Assembly (NCBI RefSeq): GCF_003334815.1
Contig: NZ_QOWO01000038.1
Length of the DNA: 34,633 nucleotides
Source: Escherichia coli
GTDB lineage: Bacteria; Pseudomonadota; Gammaproteobacteria; Enterobacterales; Enterobacteriaceae
Direction: 5' to 3' (one strand)
Part shown: in pieces, positions 1-7,744 of the stretch
How the letters are laid out: every line of letters begins with the position of its first letter
Numbering within the stretch: position 1 is the stretch's first letter
Notes under the pieces: model-generated
The model's input: the letters and a program-made list of their open reading frames with translations, nothing else
The model's database searches: none
What the model was told of the DNA's origin: nothing
Position numbers and translations under genes: made by a program

Positions 1-168
1 TCGAAACGTACTCTCAACAGTTCGCTTAGGCATGGAAGTTTTGCGGCATTCTGGCTACACAATAACAAGGGAAGACTCACTCGTGGCTGCAACCCTGCTT
101 ACTCAAAATCTATTCACACATGGTTACGTTTTGGGGAAATTATGAGGGGATCTCTCAGTACTTTGTAA
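1..168 (+). CDS. 3' end of an upstream gene running into the window (partial; frame ambiguous)
   Basis: Frame 1 is open from the window edge to TAA at 166-168; frame 2 is open to TGA at 143-145. I cannot decide between them without the upstream sequence. A strong hairpin follows immediately. Confidence 0.25.
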   Translation, partial: SKRTLNSSLRHGSFAAFWLHNNKGRLTRGCNPAYSKSIHTWLRFGEIMRGSLSTL

Positions 169-199
169 CAAGCCGGTGCTTTACCCACCGGCTTGTTAC
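165..199. terminator. Perfect 14-bp inverted repeat (GTAACAAGCCGGTG / CACCGGCTTGTTAC) with 7-nt loop; candidate terminator or structured element
   Basis: Read directly from the sequence. No clear T-run follows on the + strand, so intrinsic-terminator function is uncertain. Confidence 0.4.
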
Positions 200-343
200 C
201 CTCTTAAACTATCCCACTAATAATCATGCTTACTTAAGTCAAATTAACCACACTTAGTTAAACAGCCATAAATCCCTAATAAAAATGTATAAATATGAAA
301 AACCATACGATATTCGCTGTCACCGAAAAATAATTACGATGGG

Positions 344-350
344 CTATACT
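344..350 (+). promoter_or_regulatory. Candidate sigma-S/sigma-70 -10 element (C-TATACT) upstream of dosC
   Basis: CTATACT at 344-350 has a C just upstream of the hexamer as in sigma-S promoters; about 160 nt upstream of the dosC start. No transcription-start data. Confidence 0.25.
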
Positions 351-510
351 CTTCTGAAGAACAGTAGCGTAGATTGAAACTGTCCTAAATCGCTTATTTC
401 TTTTCAGTATATCTTCATATTTCAGGAGAATATGGTGCAGTTAGTCGATCTCGCACGTTGCGTTTCATTTTGATTCCGTCTGATTTCCCAGCCTTATAAG
501 GGTGTGAATT

Positions 511-1893
511 ATGGAGATGTATTTTAAAAGAATGAAAGATGAGTGGACCGGACTTGTCGAACAGGCAGATCCGCCCATTCGTGCTAAAGCCGCGGAAATT
601 GCCGTTGCGCATGCTCATTATCTGAGTATCGAGTTTTATCGAATTGTCCGCATCGACCCGCATGCCGAAGAATTCTTGAGTAATGAACAAGTTGAGCGGC
701 AGTTGAAGAGTGCGATGGAACGCTGGATTATTAACGTGCTTTCTGCCCAGGTTGACGATGTCGAAAGGCTAATACAAATCCAGCATACCGTCGCGGAAGT
801 GCATGCCCGCATAGGAATTCCGGTAGAAATTGTCGAGATGGGGTTTCGGGTGCTGAAAAAAATCCTCTATCCGGTGATCTTCTCTTCGGATTATTCCGCC
901 GCAGAAAAACTTCAGGTCTACCATTTCTCGATTAACAGTATTGATATCGCGATGGAAGTGATGACTCGCGCGTTTACCTTTAGTGACAGTAGTGCCTCAA
1001 AGGAAGATGAAAACTATCGTATCTTCTCGTTACTGGAAAACGCCGAAGAAGAAAAAGAACGGCAAATAGCCTCAATACTTTCATGGGAAATAGATATTAT
1101 CTATAAAATCCTGCTGGATTCTGATTTAGGCAGTAGTTTGCCTTTAAGCCAGGCTGATTTTGGCCTGTGGTTTAACCATAAAGGTCGACATTATTTTAGT
1201 GGTATTGCCGAAGTAGGCCATATCTCCCGTCTGATTCAGGATTTCGACGGTATTTTCAATCAAACCATGCGTAACACCAGAAATTTGAATAACAGAAGTC
1301 TGCGGGTGAAATTTTTATTACAGATAAGAAATACCGTATCGCAAATTATTACCTTGCTGCGTGAATTGTTTGAAGAAGTATCGCGCCACGAAGTCGGTAT
1401 GGATGTACTGACGAAATTACTTAACCGCCGTTTCCTACCGACTATCTTCAAACGCGAAATTGCCCATGCCAACCGGACCGGTACACCGCTGTCAGTGCTG
1501 ATTATTGACGTTGATAAATTCAAAGAGATCAACGATACGTGGGGCCATAACACTGGTGATGAAATTCTGCGTAAAGTCTCTCAGGCCTTTTATGACAACG
1601 TCCGCAGTAGTGATTATGTTTTCCGCTACGGGGGCGATGAATTTATCATTGTTTTGACTGAAGCTTCTGAAAACGAAACGTTACGTACCCCAGAACGTAT
1701 TCGCAGTCGGGTGGAGAAAACCAAACTGAAAGCCGCAAACGGCGAAGATATTGCCCTCTCACTTTCCATCGGTGCCGCCATGTTTAATGGTCATCCTGAC
1801 TATGAGCGCCTCATTCAAATAGCCGATGAAGCTCTGTATATCGCCAAAAGACGAGGTAGAAACCGTGTTGAACTCTGGAAAGCCAGTCTTTAG
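511..1893 (+). CDS. dosC: Diguanylate cyclase with N-terminal globin-coupled oxygen sensor and C-terminal GGDEF domain
   Basis: 460-aa ORF; GGDEF signature (RYGGDEF) visible in the translation; sequence recognised as E. coli DosC (YddV). Confidence 0.95.
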   Translation: MEMYFKRMKDEWTGLVEQADPPIRAKAAEIAVAHAHYLSIEFYRIVRIDPHAEEFLSNEQVERQLKSAMERWIINVLSAQVDDVERLIQIQHTVAEVHARIGIPVEIVEMGFRVLKKILYPVIFSSDYSAAEKLQVYHFSINSIDIAMEVMTRAFTFSDSSASKEDENYRIFSLLENAEEEKERQIASILSWEIDIIYKILLDSDLGSSLPLSQADFGLWFNHKGRHYFSGIAEVGHISRLIQDFDGIFNQTMRNTRNLNNRSLRVKFLLQIRNTVSQIITLLRELFEEVSRHEVGMDVLTKLLNRRFLPTIFKREIAHANRTGTPLSVLIIDVDKFKEINDTWGHNTGDEILRKVSQAFYDNVRSSDYVFRYGGDEFIIVLTEASENETLRTPERIRSRVEKTKLKAANGEDIALSLSIGAAMFNGHPDYERLIQIADEALYIAKRRGRNRVELWKASL

Positions 1894-1917
1894 ATGCGCC
1901 AGGATGCAGAGGTAATC

Positions 1918-4317
1918 ATGAAGCTAACCGATGCGGATAATGCCGCCGATGGCATTTTTTTCCCCGCCCTTGAGCAAAATATGATGGGTGCGGTGTTAAT
2001 TAACGAAAATGATGAAGTGATGTTTTTCAACCCCGCCGCAGAGAAGCTCTGGGGATACAAACGTGAAGAAGTCATTGGCAATAACATTGATATGCTGATT
2101 CCGCGGGATTTGCGTCCTGCGCATCCTGAATACATTCGTCACAACCGTGAAGGCGGTAAAGCGCGTGTTGAGGGGATGAGTCGGGAGCTGCAGCTGGAGA
2201 AAAAAGACGGCAGTAAAATCTGGACCCGTTTTGCGCTATCGAAAGTGAGCGCCGAGGGGAAAGTTTATTACCTGGCGCTGGTACGGGATGCCAGCGTAGA
2301 AATGGCGCAAAAAGAACAGACCCGACAATTGATTATTGCCGTTGACCATCTCGACCGACCGGTGATTGTCCTCGATCCGGAACGCCATATTGTGCAGTGC
2401 AATCGCGCATTTACCGAAATGTTTGGTTACTGCATTAGCGAAGCCAGCGGTATGCAGCCCGATACACTCCTGAACATTCCTGAATTCCCTGCCGATAACC
2501 GCATTCGTTTACAACAGTTGCTATGGAAAACCGCCCGCGATCAGGACGAATTTCTGCTGTTGACGCGCACCGGTGAAAAAATCTGGATTAAAGCCTCTAT
2601 CAGCCCGGTTTATGACGTGCTCGCGCATCTGCAGAACCTGGTAATGACTTTCTCGGATATCACCGAAGAACGGCAGATTCGCCAGCTTGAAGGCAATATT
2701 CTCGCCGCCATGTGCAGCAGCCCGCCATTTCATGAAATGGGGGAAATCATTTGTCGTAACATCGAATCTGTACTCAACGAATCGCATGTTTCGCTGTTCG
2801 CACTGCGCAACGGGATGCCGATACACTGGGCGTCATCTTCCCACGGTGCAGAAATTCAAAATGCGCAAAGCTGGTCAGCGACCATTCGTCAGCGTGATGG
2901 CGCGCCTGCGGGGATCCTGCAAATTAAAACCTCGTCAGGAGCAGAAACCAGCGCCTTTATCGAACGCGTGGCAGATATCAGCCAGCATATGGCCGCGCTG
3001 GCGCTGGAACAGGAAAAAAGCCGTCAGCATATTGAACAACTCATCCAATTTGATCCGATGACCGGTCTGCCAAATCGCAATAACCTGCACAATTACCTCG
3101 ATGACCTGGTCGACAAAGCCGTCTCTCCCGTGGTGTATCTCATCGGTGTTGACCATATTCAGGATGTGATTGATAGCCTTGGCTATGCGTGGGCCGATCA
3201 GGCATTGCTGGAAGTGGTCAATCGCTTTCGTGAAAAACTCAAACCGGATCAGTATCTCTGTCGTATCGAAGGTACGCAGTTTGTCCTCGTGAGCCTCGAA
3301 AACGACGTCAGTAACATTACCCAAATCGCCGATGAGCTACGGAATGTGGTCAGCAAGCCGATAATGATTGACGATAAACCCTTCCCGCTTACCTTGAGTA
3401 TTGGCATCAGCTACGACCTGGGTAAAAACCGCGATTACTTGCTCTCCACTGCTCACAATGCAATGGATTATATTCGCAAGAATGGCGGTAACGGCTGGCA
3501 GTTCTTCAGCCCGGCGATGAACGAAATGGTAAAAGAGCGTTTGGTTTTAGGCGCAGCGCTGAAAGAAGCGATTAGCAATAACCAACTGAAACTGGTTTAC
3601 CAGCCGCAAATCTTCGCAGAAACGGGTGAACTGTACGGCATCGAAGCCCTTGCTCGCTGGCACGATCCCCTGCATGGTCATGTGCCCCCTTCACGGTTTA
3701 TTCCTCTCGCAGAAGAGATTGGTGAAATCGAAAATATTGGGCGCTGGGTCATCGCGGAAGCTTGCCGTCAGTTAGCAGAATGGCGTAGCCAGAATATTCA
3801 TATCCCGGCGTTATCCGTGAACTTGTCGGCGCTGCACTTTCGCAGTAATCAACTGCCTAATCAGGTGTCTGATGCAATGCACGCCTGGGGTATTGACGGC
3901 CACCAGCTGACGGTAGAAATCACGGAAAGCATGATGATGGAACACGATACCGAAATCTTTAAGCGCATTCAGATCCTGCGTGATATGGGCGTGGGCTTAT
4001 CGGTAGATGATTTTGGTACGGGCTTTTCCGGATTATCCCGCTTAGTCAGTCTTCCGGTAACGGAAATCAAAATTGACAAAAGTTTTGTCGATCGTTGTCT
4101 GACCGAAAAACGCATCCTTGCCTTACTTGAAGCCATTACCAGCATTGGGCAAAGCCTCAATTTAACCGTCGTGGCGGAAGGCGTCGAAACCAAAGAGCAA
4201 TTTGAGATGCTACGCAAGATCCACTGTCGCGTTATTCAGGGATATTTCTTTTCCCGCCCCCTACCCGCCGAAGAAATTCCAGGCTGGATGAGCAGCGTGT
4301 TACCGCTGAAAATCTGA
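1918..4317 (+). CDS. dosP: Haem-PAS oxygen-sensing c-di-GMP phosphodiesterase (PAS-PAS-GGDEF-EAL)
   Basis: ORF-track frame 1894-4317; start placed at ATG 1918 (MKLTDADNAADG...) giving 799 aa. EAL-domain motifs in the C-terminal half; recognised as E. coli DosP (YddU). Confidence 0.93.
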   Translation: MKLTDADNAADGIFFPALEQNMMGAVLINENDEVMFFNPAAEKLWGYKREEVIGNNIDMLIPRDLRPAHPEYIRHNREGGKARVEGMSRELQLEKKDGSKIWTRFALSKVSAEGKVYYLALVRDASVEMAQKEQTRQLIIAVDHLDRPVIVLDPERHIVQCNRAFTEMFGYCISEASGMQPDTLLNIPEFPADNRIRLQQLLWKTARDQDEFLLLTRTGEKIWIKASISPVYDVLAHLQNLVMTFSDITEERQIRQLEGNILAAMCSSPPFHEMGEIICRNIESVLNESHVSLFALRNGMPIHWASSSHGAEIQNAQSWSATIRQRDGAPAGILQIKTSSGAETSAFIERVADISQHMAALALEQEKSRQHIEQLIQFDPMTGLPNRNNLHNYLDDLVDKAVSPVVYLIGVDHIQDVIDSLGYAWADQALLEVVNRFREKLKPDQYLCRIEGTQFVLVSLENDVSNITQIADELRNVVSKPIMIDDKPFPLTLSIGISYDLGKNRDYLLSTAHNAMDYIRKNGGNGWQFFSPAMNEMVKERLVLGAALKEAISNNQLKLVYQPQIFAETGELYGIEALARWHDPLHGHVPPSRFIPLAEEIGEIENIGRWVIAEACRQLAEWRSQNIHIPALSVNLSALHFRSNQLPNQVSDAMHAWGIDGHQLTVEITESMMMEHDTEIFKRIQILRDMGVGLSVDDFGTGFSGLSRLVSLPVTEIKIDKSFVDRCLTEKRILALLEAITSIGQSLNLTVVAEGVETKEQFEMLRKIHCRVIQGYFFSRPLPAEEIPGWMSSVLPLKI

Positions 4318-4330
4318 CAAATTCCTCTCG

Positions 4331-4348
4331 CCCGCACTCGCGGGTTTT
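4331..4348 (+). terminator. Short GC-rich hairpin (CCCGC-ACTC-GCGGG) followed by TTTT; candidate weak intrinsic terminator after dosP
   Basis: 5-bp stem and T-tract read directly, 14 nt after the dosP stop. Confidence 0.35.
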
Positions 4349-4426
4349 CATTTAACGTGACACTGTCACTTAAATACTGTGATTTCAGCTACGATTCCGG
4401 GAGATTCCTTCCTTAACTTCCCCTCT

Positions 4427-4453
4427 TGCACCAAAACTGCACTACGCTGCACA
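4427..4453 (+). promoter_or_regulatory. Candidate NtrC (enhancer-binding protein) sites: three TGCAC repeats
   Basis: TGCACCAAAACTGCACTACGCTGCACA resembles TGCACC-type NtrC half-sites and lies about 70 bp upstream of a sigma-54-like element. Confidence 0.3.
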
Positions 4454-4514
4454 AATGTTGATCAAAAGTTAAAAAATATAACTTTAAGCCAGCATTCTGG
4501 CGCTTATCCCGGCA

Positions 4515-4530
4515 TGGCATGAGATCTGCA
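4515..4530 (+). promoter_or_regulatory. Sigma-54 (-24/-12) promoter candidate for the ddp operon
   Basis: TGGCAT-N5-CTGCA matches the sigma-54 consensus TGGCAC-N5-TTGCA, with GG and GC correctly spaced; about 45 nt upstream of the ddpX start. Confidence 0.5.
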
Positions 4531-4574
4531 TAAGCGGAAAGCGCAGCAATTTTTGTCTTATACAGGAACCGTTT

Positions 4575-5156
4575 ATGTCGGATACCACCGAACTGGTTGA
4601 TTTAGCCGTAATCTTCCCTGATCTGGAGATCGAATTGAAATACGCCTGCGCTGATAACATCACAGGTAAAGCTATTTATCAGCAAGCGCGTTGTCTGTTA
4701 CACAAGGATGCGATTACCGCGCTGGCGAAAAGTATCAGCATCGCCCAGCTGTCAGGGTTACAACTGGTGATTTACGATGCGTATCGCCCACAACAAGCAC
4801 AGGCGATGTTGTGGCAAGCCTGCCCAGACCCGCAATATGTTGTTGATGTGACGGTCGGTTCTAATCACAGCCGTGGCACGGCGATCGACCTGACGCTTCG
4901 TGATGAGCACGGGAACATCCTCGATATGGGCGCAGGGTTCGATGAAATGCACGAGCGCTCCCATGCCTATCACCCTTCCGTCCCGCCCGCCGCTCAGCGC
5001 AATCGGCTGTTGCTGAATGCGATAATGACTGGTGGCGGTTTTGTCGGTATCTCCAGCGAATGGTGGCACTTCGAATTACCCCAGGCAGCGAGTTACCCTC
5101 TGCTCGCTGATCAATTCTCTTGTTTTATATCCCCTGGCACACAGCACGTCAGTTAA
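4575..5156 (+). CDS. ddpX: D-alanyl-D-alanine dipeptidase (VanX homologue)
   Basis: 193-aa ORF; recognised as E. coli DdpX; SxHxxGxAxD-type zinc-peptidase motif region present (SNHSRGTAIDL). Confidence 0.93.
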   Translation: MSDTTELVDLAVIFPDLEIELKYACADNITGKAIYQQARCLLHKDAITALAKSISIAQLSGLQLVIYDAYRPQQAQAMLWQACPDPQYVVDVTVGSNHSRGTAIDLTLRDEHGNILDMGAGFDEMHERSHAYHPSVPPAAQRNRLLLNAIMTGGGFVGISSEWWHFELPQAASYPLLADQFSCFISPGTQHVS

Positions 5157-6721: not shown

Positions 6722-7744
6722 GTGACCTTCTGGAGTATTTTACGCCAACGCTGCTGGGGGCTGGTGCTCGTGGTGGCGGGCGTCTGCGTGATTACGTTTA
6801 TTATCTCGCATCTGATCCCTGGTGATCCGGCGCGGTTACTGGCGGGTGACCGCGCCAGCGATGCTATCGTGGAAAATATTCGCCAGCAACTGGGACTGGA
6901 CCAGCCACTGTATGTACAGTTTTACCGCTACGTCAGCGACCTGTTTCATGGTGACCTGGGAACATCCATTCGTACCGGGCGTCCGGTGCTGGAAGAGTTG
7001 CGTATATTTTTCCCGGCGACGCTGGAGCTGGCTTTTGGTGCCCTGCTGCTGGCACTCCTGATTGGCATCCCGCTGGGCATACTCTCTGCAGTCTGGCGAA
7101 ATCGCTGGCTGGATCATCTGGTGCGAATAATGGCCATTACCGGAATCTCCACACCTGCGTTCTGGCTTGGGCTGGGCGTCATTGTGCTGTTTTATGGTCA
7201 TCTGCAAATTCTTCCCGGCGGCGGAAGGCTTGATGACTGGCTGGATCCACCAACGCACGTTACCGGCTTTTATCTGCTCGATGCGCTGCTTGAAGGCAAC
7301 GGTGAAGTCTTCTTCAATGCGTTGCAACATCTCATCTTACCGGCATTAACGCTGGCGTTCGTTCACCTGGGAATTGTCGCTCGCCAGATCCGCTCAGCGA
7401 TGCTGGAACAATTGAGTGAAGACTACATTCGTACCGCCCGGGCCAGCGGCTTGCCCGGCTGGTATATCGTTTTATGTTATGCGCTACCCAATGCGTTGAT
7501 CCCATCGATTACCGTATTGGGTTTGGCGCTGGGCGATTTGTTGTATGGCGCAGTGCTCACCGAAACCGTTTTTGCCTGGCCCGGAATGGGTGCATGGGTA
7601 GTAACATCAATACAGGCGCTCGACTTCCCGGCAGTGATGGGCTTTGCCGTCGTGGTTTCATTTGCTTATGTGCTGGTCAACCTGGTGGTGGATTTGCTCT
7701 ATTTGTGGATTGATCCGCGTATCGGACGTGGAGGTGGTGAATGA
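6722..7744 (+). CDS. ddpB: ABC transporter permease (DppB/OppB family)
   Basis: 340-aa ORF, GTG start 1 nt after the ddpA stop; multi-pass hydrophobic protein. Confidence 0.9.
   Translation: MTFWSILRQRCWGLVLVVAGVCVITFIISHLIPGDPARLLAGDRASDAIVENIRQQLGLDQPLYVQFYRYVSDLFHGDLGTSIRTGRPVLEELRIFFPATLELAFGALLLALLIGIPLGILSAVWRNRWLDHLVRIMAITGISTPAFWLGLGVIVLFYGHLQILPGGGRLDDWLDPPTHVTGFYLLDALLEGNGEVFFNALQHLILPALTLAFVHLGIVARQIRSAMLEQLSEDYIRTARASGLPGWYIVLCYALPNALIPSITVLGLALGDLLYGAVLTETVFAWPGMGAWVVTSIQALDFPAVMGFAVVVSFAYVLVNLVVDLLYLWIDPRIGRGGGE

Follow-up and report, generated by a model that had tools for sequence, protein, structure and literature searches.

The window analysed here, a 34,633-nt stretch of an Escherichia coli contig, contains dosC and dosP, which are reported to form the dosCP operon (PMC11543664; PMC5635695) and whose features are listed in Table 1. 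The identities proposed for both genes in the initial annotation are borne out by the RefSeq annotation and by the NCBIfam DosP model. The orthologous CDS in RefSeq is named 'diguanylate cyclase DosC' and the dosC product has a GGDEF domain match, and model NF008467 scores 1643.8 bits (cutoff 857) against the longest dosP ORF in the ORF listing (1894..4317, 807 aa), covering its residues 9-807. The junction between the genes reads agccagtctt TAG ATG cgc cag gat gca gag gta atc ATG aag cta, confirming from the sequence that the dosC stop is directly followed by an ATG in the dosP frame. A second in-frame ATG lies 24 nt further on; we refer to the two codons as ATG1 and ATG2. The initial annotation left implicit that the two genes share one reading frame, the dosC TAG doubling as the in-frame stop that bounds the long dosP ORF on its 5' side.

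Table 1 Features of the dosC-dosP junction in the window
Feature	Position	Strand	Basis
dosC (dgcO/yddV) CDS, 460 aa, globin-coupled diguanylate cyclase	511..1893	+	ORF, RefSeq orthologue, GGDEF
dosC stop codon TAG, in-frame stop before the long dosP ORF	1891..1893	+	sequence, ORF list
ATG1, abuts TAG; opens the historical 807-aa Ec DOS ORF (MRQDAEVI extension)	1894..1896	+	
dosC-dosP intercistronic spacer, 24 nt	1894..1917	+	alignment
Shine-Dalgarno (SD) AGAGGT (GAGG core 1909-1912), serves ATG2	1908..1913	+	16S 3' end duplex, conservation
ATG2, conserved dosP initiation codon	1918..1920	+	RefSeq, NCBIfam, cross-genus conservation
dosP (pdeO/yddU) CDS, 799 aa, haem-PAS oxygen-sensing c-di-GMP phosphodiesterase	1918..4317	+	NF008467

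The two ATG codons differ clearly in their initiation signals. Pairing of the 21 nt upstream of the codon with the 16S rRNA 3' end yields -8.5 kcal/mol for ATG2, a duplex energy matched or bettered by 7% of the 644 plus-strand ATGs in the window. For ATG1 the value is only -3.3 kcal/mol, which is close to the window's ATG median (57% of the 644 do as well), and the codon lacks an SD. GAGGT (1909-1913) ends 4-5 nt before ATG2, within the ~4-9 nt at which 16S-complementary sequence precedes an SD-dependent start, in agreement with the earlier observation that GAGG is better placed for this codon. Hence dosP has two in-frame ATGs without an initiation signal for each of them. The presence of an ATG directly after the dosC stop is itself no more than expected by chance, because at the window's ATG trinucleotide frequency (0.0173) this particular codon would read ATG with a probability of 1.7%, at least one of the eight spacer codons would do so with 13%, and at least one would be ATG, GTG or TTG with 33%. 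In a crude survey of the window, the start with the best SD differed from the first in-frame start in 19 of the 33 ORFs with a length of 150 aa or more, and the ORFs at 7741 and 9613 likewise begin directly after an in-frame stop.

Outside Escherichia, the junction was compared in four Citrobacter sequences (L009, L010, L011 and the one junction sequence common to L014 and L005), in Phytobacter (L004/L012) and in Trabulsiella (L015). The SD and a start encoding M-K/N are retained in all four Citrobacter sequences and in Phytobacter, so that both the start codon ATG2 and its SD are conserved in orthologues. In every non-Escherichia orthologue examined, ATG1 is either missing or closed off by in-frame stops: a TAA or TGA stands in frame 0-3 nt before the dosP start in L010, L011, L014/L005 and Phytobacter L012, and Citrobacter L009 has no in-frame start upstream of the conserved one. 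The DosP-like ORF of Trabulsiella starts at an ATG that follows an SD-like GGGGTGA, with an in-frame TGA 3 nt upstream. In the alignment of Escherichia, Citrobacter and Phytobacter, the GGT of the SD is invariant and GAGG nearly so; the 5' third of the spacer is variable and its 3' two-thirds (CNGGATGCAGAGGTAA) are conserved. Conservation in the spacer is lowest in the bases just after the dosC stop, ATG1 included, and CGGATGCAGAGGTAA is conserved. ATG1 is thus not a conserved downstream-gene start of the kind found in coupled gene pairs. Together with the RefSeq starts, the start of NF008467 and the anti-SD energies, this cross-genus conservation upholds the earlier preference for the ATG at 1918 as the expected N-terminus.

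A CAGGAUG motif is also conserved at the junction, and we considered its reading as a CsrA site. Support for such a site is only indirect, yddV mRNA being raised in the csrA51 mutant (PMC4844966).

Within Escherichia, 5,315 complete E. coli genomes carry the junction and ~98% of them keep ATG1, as do sister clades, including E. whittamii and Escherichia sp. E1V33. At least 53 complete genomes with an intact dosP (exact matches to the L003 haplotype) have ATA in its place, and Escherichia strain E69, where dosP is full length, has ATT; at another Escherichia locus (L006) the dosC stop is TAA, not TAG. The L088 haplotype, found in 168 genomes, carries two changes (CGC>CGT and ATC>ATT), both synonymous in the frame of the extension, which may be read as a weak hint that the extension is used (chance probability ~0.1). 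Non-synonymous changes in the extension were seen as well (Q>P and D>Y), and the tally of two synonymous changes, two non-synonymous changes and two start losses is too small for a formal test. The pattern is not one of two conserved starts with an extension under purifying selection, and at the sequence level nothing indicates selection for ATG1.

These observations bear on a dual-start arrangement in which AUG-1918 would give the 799-aa protein and ribosomes terminating on dosC would make a substantial 807-aa proteoform from AUG-1894. The contiguity of the dosC stop with an in-frame ATG1, the wide retention of ATG1 in Escherichia, the synonymous L088 pair and the folded and active state of the recombinant 807-aa protein (PMC11543664) would all fit such an arrangement. 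However, it is countered by the missing SD, by the absence or blockage of ATG1 in Citrobacter, Phytobacter and Trabulsiella, by its loss to ATA or ATT with dosP intact, by the non-synonymous substitutions and by the position of the eight residues ahead of the region present in the 1S66 and 9CMF chain sequences. We therefore regard a substantial 807-aa proteoform as unlikely, and just as unlikely that the 807/799 ratio would report the share of DosP made in cis with DosC.

The existence of both lengths has a simple origin in annotation history. RefSeq/PGAP places the DosP start at ATG2 in all annotated loci fetched (L001-L003, L087-L091), and residue 9 of the long ORF is where position 1 of NF008467 falls. 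UniProt P76129 lacks MRQDAEVI, the eight N-terminal residues carried by a construct published in 2024, in which 'historical numbering' was retained despite the mismatch with UniProt (PMC11543664); a review likewise gives the full length as residues 1-807 (PMC4263535). The discrepancy between 807 and 799 aa, already described (PMC11543664), did not appear in the initial annotation. The eight extra residues underlie the historical His77/Met95 numbering, and the PDB constructs include them and are numbered from ATG1. ATG1 came to be the 'start' of Ec DOS because early annotation chose the longest ORF, and the known mis-assignment of this type, Ec DOS/YddU with 807 versus DosP P76129 with 799 aa, concerns exactly this locus. 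The start ambiguity is thus already known, ordinary and explained. Since the 1S66 and 9CMF chain sequences start at long-ORF residues 16 and 20, downstream of MRQDAEVI, the protein can fold without the extension.

That ATG-1894 could nevertheless be the true main start, with 807 aa as native DosP and the 799-aa annotation in error, appears extremely improbable. It does give the longest ORF and was used in most biochemical and structural work, and among the exact matches to the window dosP sequence, found at both lengths in public collections, the 807-aa form appears on 595 contigs. Yet every point in favour of initiation at ATG-1918 counts against it, foremost that ATG1 is missing in other genera and that 53 or more E. 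coli genomes have lost it with dosP intact, and the 807-aa form of the laboratory reflects a choice of construct rather than a native N-terminus.

We then consider whether the junction holds a device that would tie dosP translation to dosC. The predicted folding energy of the junction is no better than that of shuffled sequences (z = +0.61), and the only helix in the alignment consensus spans 5 bp with -3.5 kcal/mol and 0 compensatory pairs. No Rfam match was obtained in 1-5000 at E<=1, and scanning the region between dosC and dosP revealed no internal promoter or terminator above shuffle expectation. In a structure-mediated form of coupling, the end of dosC would mask the dosP SD through pairing of CUCUG (1873-1877) with CAGAG (1907-1911), and only ribosomes translating dosC would open it. 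This 5-bp helix is present both in the minimum-energy fold and in the consensus, and in the fold of 1750-2060 the probability that the SD is unpaired is only 0.23. Against this stand the unremarkable z-score and the weak consensus helix; moreover, CUCUG lies in conserved E-L-W-K coding sequence, which explains its conservation without any structure. Lineages that have lost most of dosC also keep dosP intact. In ~1,036 genomes dosC is cut to a 3' remnant of ~165 nt, and dosP is annotated as intact in the fetched representatives (L003, L087, L089 and L091), showing that dosP can be retained without translation of the whole of dosC. A TTG-initiated remnant ORF of 72 codons still ends at the TAG. 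The ATG-to-ATA change was ruled out as a marker of this whole lineage, as 983 of its genomes keep ATG1 and 53 have ATA. Masking of the SD by dosC is accordingly very improbable, and the folding models offer no RNA structure suggestive of a special coupling device.

The common frame also raises the question of read-through at UAG to give a functional DosC-DosP fusion. No further stop lies between dosC and the long dosP ORF, and DosC and DosP are reported to form a complex (PMC4263535; PMC5635695). The arrangement is not conserved, however: L006 has a TAA stop, Citrobacter amalonaticus, C. sedlakii and Phytobacter have in-frame stops in the spacer, and the frame differs in L005/L014. This is not the conserved, uninterrupted in-frame ORF of programmed read-through. 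Members of 460 aa corresponding to DosC were found inside the DosP 90% cluster, which prompted a search for fusions. A junction-spanning protein query returned no DosC-DosP fusion proteins, in a weak search that also missed full-length DosP; its top match, P0089, proved to be a duplication artefact. The likelihood that read-through yields a functional fusion is close to nil. As a single TAG separates the two genes in one frame, amber-suppressor hosts (e.g., TG1) could nonetheless make a DosC-DosP fusion, which could confound co-purification from the native operon.

The junction closely resembles the canonical SD-led operon spacer of E. coli (~10-30 nt), with its 24 nt and a conserved GAGGT 5 nt before the ATG; nothing essential differs, the sole oddity being that the spacer starts with an in-frame ATG. 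The UGAUG of trpB-trpA exemplifies termination-reinitiation coupling, and dosCP shares with such pairs the contiguity of the upstream stop (TAG 1891-1893) and a candidate start (ATG 1894-1896), as UAGAUG within one operon. In coupled pairs, however, the abutting start is conserved and functional, whereas at dosP it is the separate SD-led start 24 nt downstream that is conserved, and not the abutting ATG. IF2 alpha/beta and the long and short forms of ClpB are proteoforms arising from in-frame alternative starts. The two in-frame ATGs of dosP could similarly yield proteins that are identical except at the N-terminus, but here the upstream start has no SD and is not conserved, and the eight residues precede the region present in the 1S66 and 9CMF chain sequences. 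Alternative in-frame starts of this class have been mapped by retapamulin profiling (bioRxiv 10.1101/520783). The TRAINSPOTTER supplements hold no entry for dosP/b1489/P76129, and our literature search found neither proteomic data on the native DosP N-terminus nor initiation-site profiling of dosP.

Taken together, the evidence makes it likely that this is an ordinary operon junction, with dosP translated mainly from AUG-1918 and AUG-1894 an unselected accident of the spacer confined to Escherichia. Initiation at AUG-1918 would be directed by dosP's own SD AGAGGU (1908-1913), located in the 24-nt spacer after the dosC stop, and would produce the 799-aa DosP. What speaks against this reading is the retention of ATG1, the L088 synonymous changes and the geometry of the junction. 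A start codon placed directly after a stop has the best geometry for termination-reinitiation, for which an SD is not needed; such SD-independent reinitiation is described by the scanning model of Adhin and van Duin and by 70S scanning. With ATG1 kept in ~98% of E. coli genomes, ribosomes finishing dosC may occasionally restart at AUG-1894 at a low level, giving a minor DosP with eight additional residues. The earlier suggestion of tight coupling or two alternative starts is not refuted, but the comparative evidence lends it no support: ATG1 lacks an SD, is missing or stop-blocked in the non-Escherichia orthologues examined, and in two Escherichia lineages with dosP intact a point mutation has removed it. 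A stricter version, in which E. coli makes two proteoforms and the 807-aa one arises only when a ribosome just finishing DosC restarts at the abutting AUG, seems quite improbable. If true, the longer form would label the DosP molecules synthesised in cis with DosC and might influence how DosC and DosP, the oxygen-sensing pair, assemble co-translationally. As the abutting AUG is missing from other genera, the two-proteoform DosP would then be an innovation specific to Escherichia.

The likely arrangement, with initiation at AUG-1918, implies no new biology and is chiefly of value for bookkeeping. With the conserved start at ATG-1918, native DosP most likely lacks MRQDAEVI, and, early work having relied on the upstream ATG, residue numbers in the Ec DOS/DosP literature (His77, Met95, Arg97) differ by 8 from those of UniProt and RefSeq.

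The dosC-dosP junction reads GCC AGT CTT TAG ATG CGC CAG GAT GCA GAG GTA ATC ATG AAG CTA in the window, and re-reading of the sequence confirmed the initial annotation exactly, both in its coordinates and in its description of a dosC stop adjoining an in-frame ATG (ATG1) with the likely dosP start (ATG2) 24 nt further on. dosC and the long dosP ORF occupy one reading frame, with the TAG alone between them (window 511-4317). Because both genes lie in the same frame, this TAG is also the upstream bounding stop of the long ORF.

Features at the dosC-dosP junction and the region of reduced dosC in other E. coli loci
Feature	Position	Strand	Description
TAG	1891-1893	+	stop of the 460-codon ORF 511..1893
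ATG1	1894-1896	+	first codon of the 807-codon ORF 1894..4317
GAGG	1909-1912	+	ahead of ATG2
ATG2	1918-1920	+	second ATG, in frame with ATG1
Region of reduced dosC	L003 2421-2690; L087 100-360		equivalent to window ~470-1917

By megablast, 5,354 of the 5,426 complete E. coli genomes have this region, within features labelled dosC and dosP, and the downstream protein matched the NCBIfam model for DosP (NF008467) at 1643.8 bits (cutoff 857). The match runs from residue 9 to residue 807 of the long ORF and from position 1 to position 800 of the model, so the curated model begins at the second methionine. RefSeq/PGAP likewise starts DosP 24 nt past the DosC stop, giving 799 aa, in every locus fetched, which supports the gene identities and the preference for ATG-1918 as the dosP start. 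Public collections hold exactly this protein at both lengths, 799 aa on at least 1,000 contigs and 807 aa on 595. The eight additional residues, MRQDAEVI, are present in the PDB entries for full-length DosP (9BGV, 9CDR) and for the haem-PAS domain (1V9Y), and in a 2013 review full-length Ec DOS runs from residue 1 to residue 807 (PMC4263535). A 2024 paper notes that UniProt P76129 lacks MRQDAEVI, which its own construct carries, and retains the historical numbering (PMC11543664). The two-start issue is thus already documented in the literature, and it is settled in current annotation.

We scored pairing of the 21 nt upstream of each of 644 plus-strand ATGs with the 16S rRNA 3′ end. ATG-1918 reached -8.5 kcal/mol, within the top 7%, and ATG-1894 lay near the median at -3.3 kcal/mol. 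The ATG frequency in the window (0.0173) gives a probability of 1.7% for an ATG at that exact codon and of 13% for any in-frame ATG within the 8-codon spacer; rival in-frame start candidates are frequent across the window's long ORFs. The abutting in-frame ATG is no more than chance expectation. The ORFs at 7741 and 9613, which follow ddpX in the ddp operon region, likewise begin right after an in-frame stop, as is typical of tightly packed operons.

When one genome per species was scanned, dosC-dosP orthologues came up in Escherichia spp., Citrobacter spp., Phytobacter massiliensis and Trabulsiella guamensis. In Citrobacter and Phytobacter, DosP starts with M-K/N at the ATG-1918 position, preceded by GAGG(T), GGGGT or AAGGTG. 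An in-frame TAA or TGA lies 3 nt ahead of this start in C. amalonaticus, C. sedlakii and Phytobacter, a Citrobacter-type allele (L005/L014) has TAA-TAA directly ahead of it and dosC and dosP in different frames, and the spacer of a Citrobacter MAG contains no in-frame start. In Trabulsiella the ATG follows an SD-like GGGGTGA, and an in-frame TGA lies 3 nt before that ATG. Aligned at the nucleotide level, the junctions share the conserved block CNGGATGCAGAGGTAA and ATG2, and they are least conserved over the 7-10 nt that follow the dosC stop, where ATG1 sits. From these junctions and the alignment, ATG1 is confined to Escherichia. Conservation of the 16-nt block (window 1899-1915) between Escherichia and Citrobacter exceeds what an SD alone requires; it contains an out-of-frame mini-ORF, ATG(1904) CAG AGG TAA(1915), and a CAGGAUG resembling the CsrA GGA-motif consensus. 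A csrA51 mutant has raised yddV mRNA (PMC4844966).

Within E. coli, exact haplotypes of the 60-mer 1865-1924 were counted among 5,315 junction-bearing complete genomes. The window haplotype occurs in 4,057, and a further 983 differ by T at 1878 (a dosC-deleted lineage with ATG1 intact), 53 by T at 1878 plus ATG>ATA, 168 by CGC>CGT with ATC>ATT, and 11 by CAG>CCG (Q>P), leaving by subtraction about 43 with other haplotypes. About 98% of genomes therefore have ATG1. Strain E69, which GTDB assigns to a separate species cluster, carries ATT in place of ATG1; together with the haplotype counts this indicates at least two losses of ATG1, with dosP still full length and annotated intact. One genome carries GAT>TAT (D>Y). 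The substitutions in the extension (two synonymous, two non-synonymous and two start losses), too few for a test, do not point to purifying selection acting on the peptide.

The best-supported reading is an SD-led start at AUG-1918, in which initiation would occur within an ordinary 24-nt intercistronic spacer and AUG-1894 would be a fortuitous, Escherichia-specific in-frame triplet. In termination-reinitiation, a start contiguous with a stop can catch some terminating ribosomes without an SD, so a minor 807-aa form may be made in strains bearing ATG1. A search for N-terminal or initiation-site data on dosP gave none; which start is used in vivo, and whether the genes are coupled to any extent, are inferred. 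The junction feature exists as the initial annotation described it, and it has an explanation.

In about 1,036 complete E. coli genomes, two internal deletions cut dosC to a ~165-nt 3′ remnant. A 72-codon TTG-initiated remnant ORF still ends at the TAG; dosP is annotated intact in all four remnant-dosC genomes fetched (L003, L087, L089, L091). Frequent loss of DosC across strains has been reported (PMC5635171). Another deletion, in E. coli PEC422 (L090 279-345), fuses a truncated gadC directly to the end of dosC, 7 nt before its TAG, removing digH and nearly all of dosC and keeping the 24-nt spacer and dosP. At 1690 the window itself has C, against G in L001 and L002, the two E. coli loci checked at single-base level (GCA>CCA, DosC A394P, just past the GGDEF motif). 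Over 1600-2200 the best-matching genome differs from the window at this base alone, and no complete E. coli genome exceeds 99.8% match there. A private mutation, a laboratory allele and a sequencing error are each possible sources of the C.

RNA structure at the junction was not significant (z = +0.61), with no Rfam match and no promoter or terminator above shuffle expectation. The sole consensus helix in 15 aligned junctions, a 5-bp CUCUG:CAGAG (-3.5 kcal/mol), showed no compensatory change across them. Inside dosP codons 8-16 lies a terminator-like hairpin, AATGCCG-CCGA-TGGCATT followed by seven T (1939-1964). It is weak in the window (-8.5 kcal/mol, z -0.7); sister Escherichia clades have in its place an A-tract/U-tract hairpin of 11 bp (-12.5 kcal/mol, z -3.5 to -4.2), and Citrobacter and Phytobacter lack it. 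It may act as an attenuator or arise by coincidence from the G-I-F-F codons.

Since a single TAG splits the shared frame, amber-suppressor hosts should make some DosC-Gln-MRQDAEVI-DosP fusion, with a predicted length of ~1,268 aa. TG1 carries supE44. It has served as a DosP expression host (PMC11543664). The 90%-identity cluster of the protein encoded by 1918-4314 also contains 460-aa DosC members, as would be expected if stop-lost fused DosC-DosP ORFs exist in the collection; a junction-spanning search, of a kind that under-returns long proteins, yielded no fused proteins. The shared-frame arrangement is not conserved: dosC ends in TAA in another Escherichia locus (L006), and in Citrobacter and Phytobacter stops intervene or the frame differs. 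The amber-suppression fusion is a caution for laboratory practice and does not represent conserved biology.
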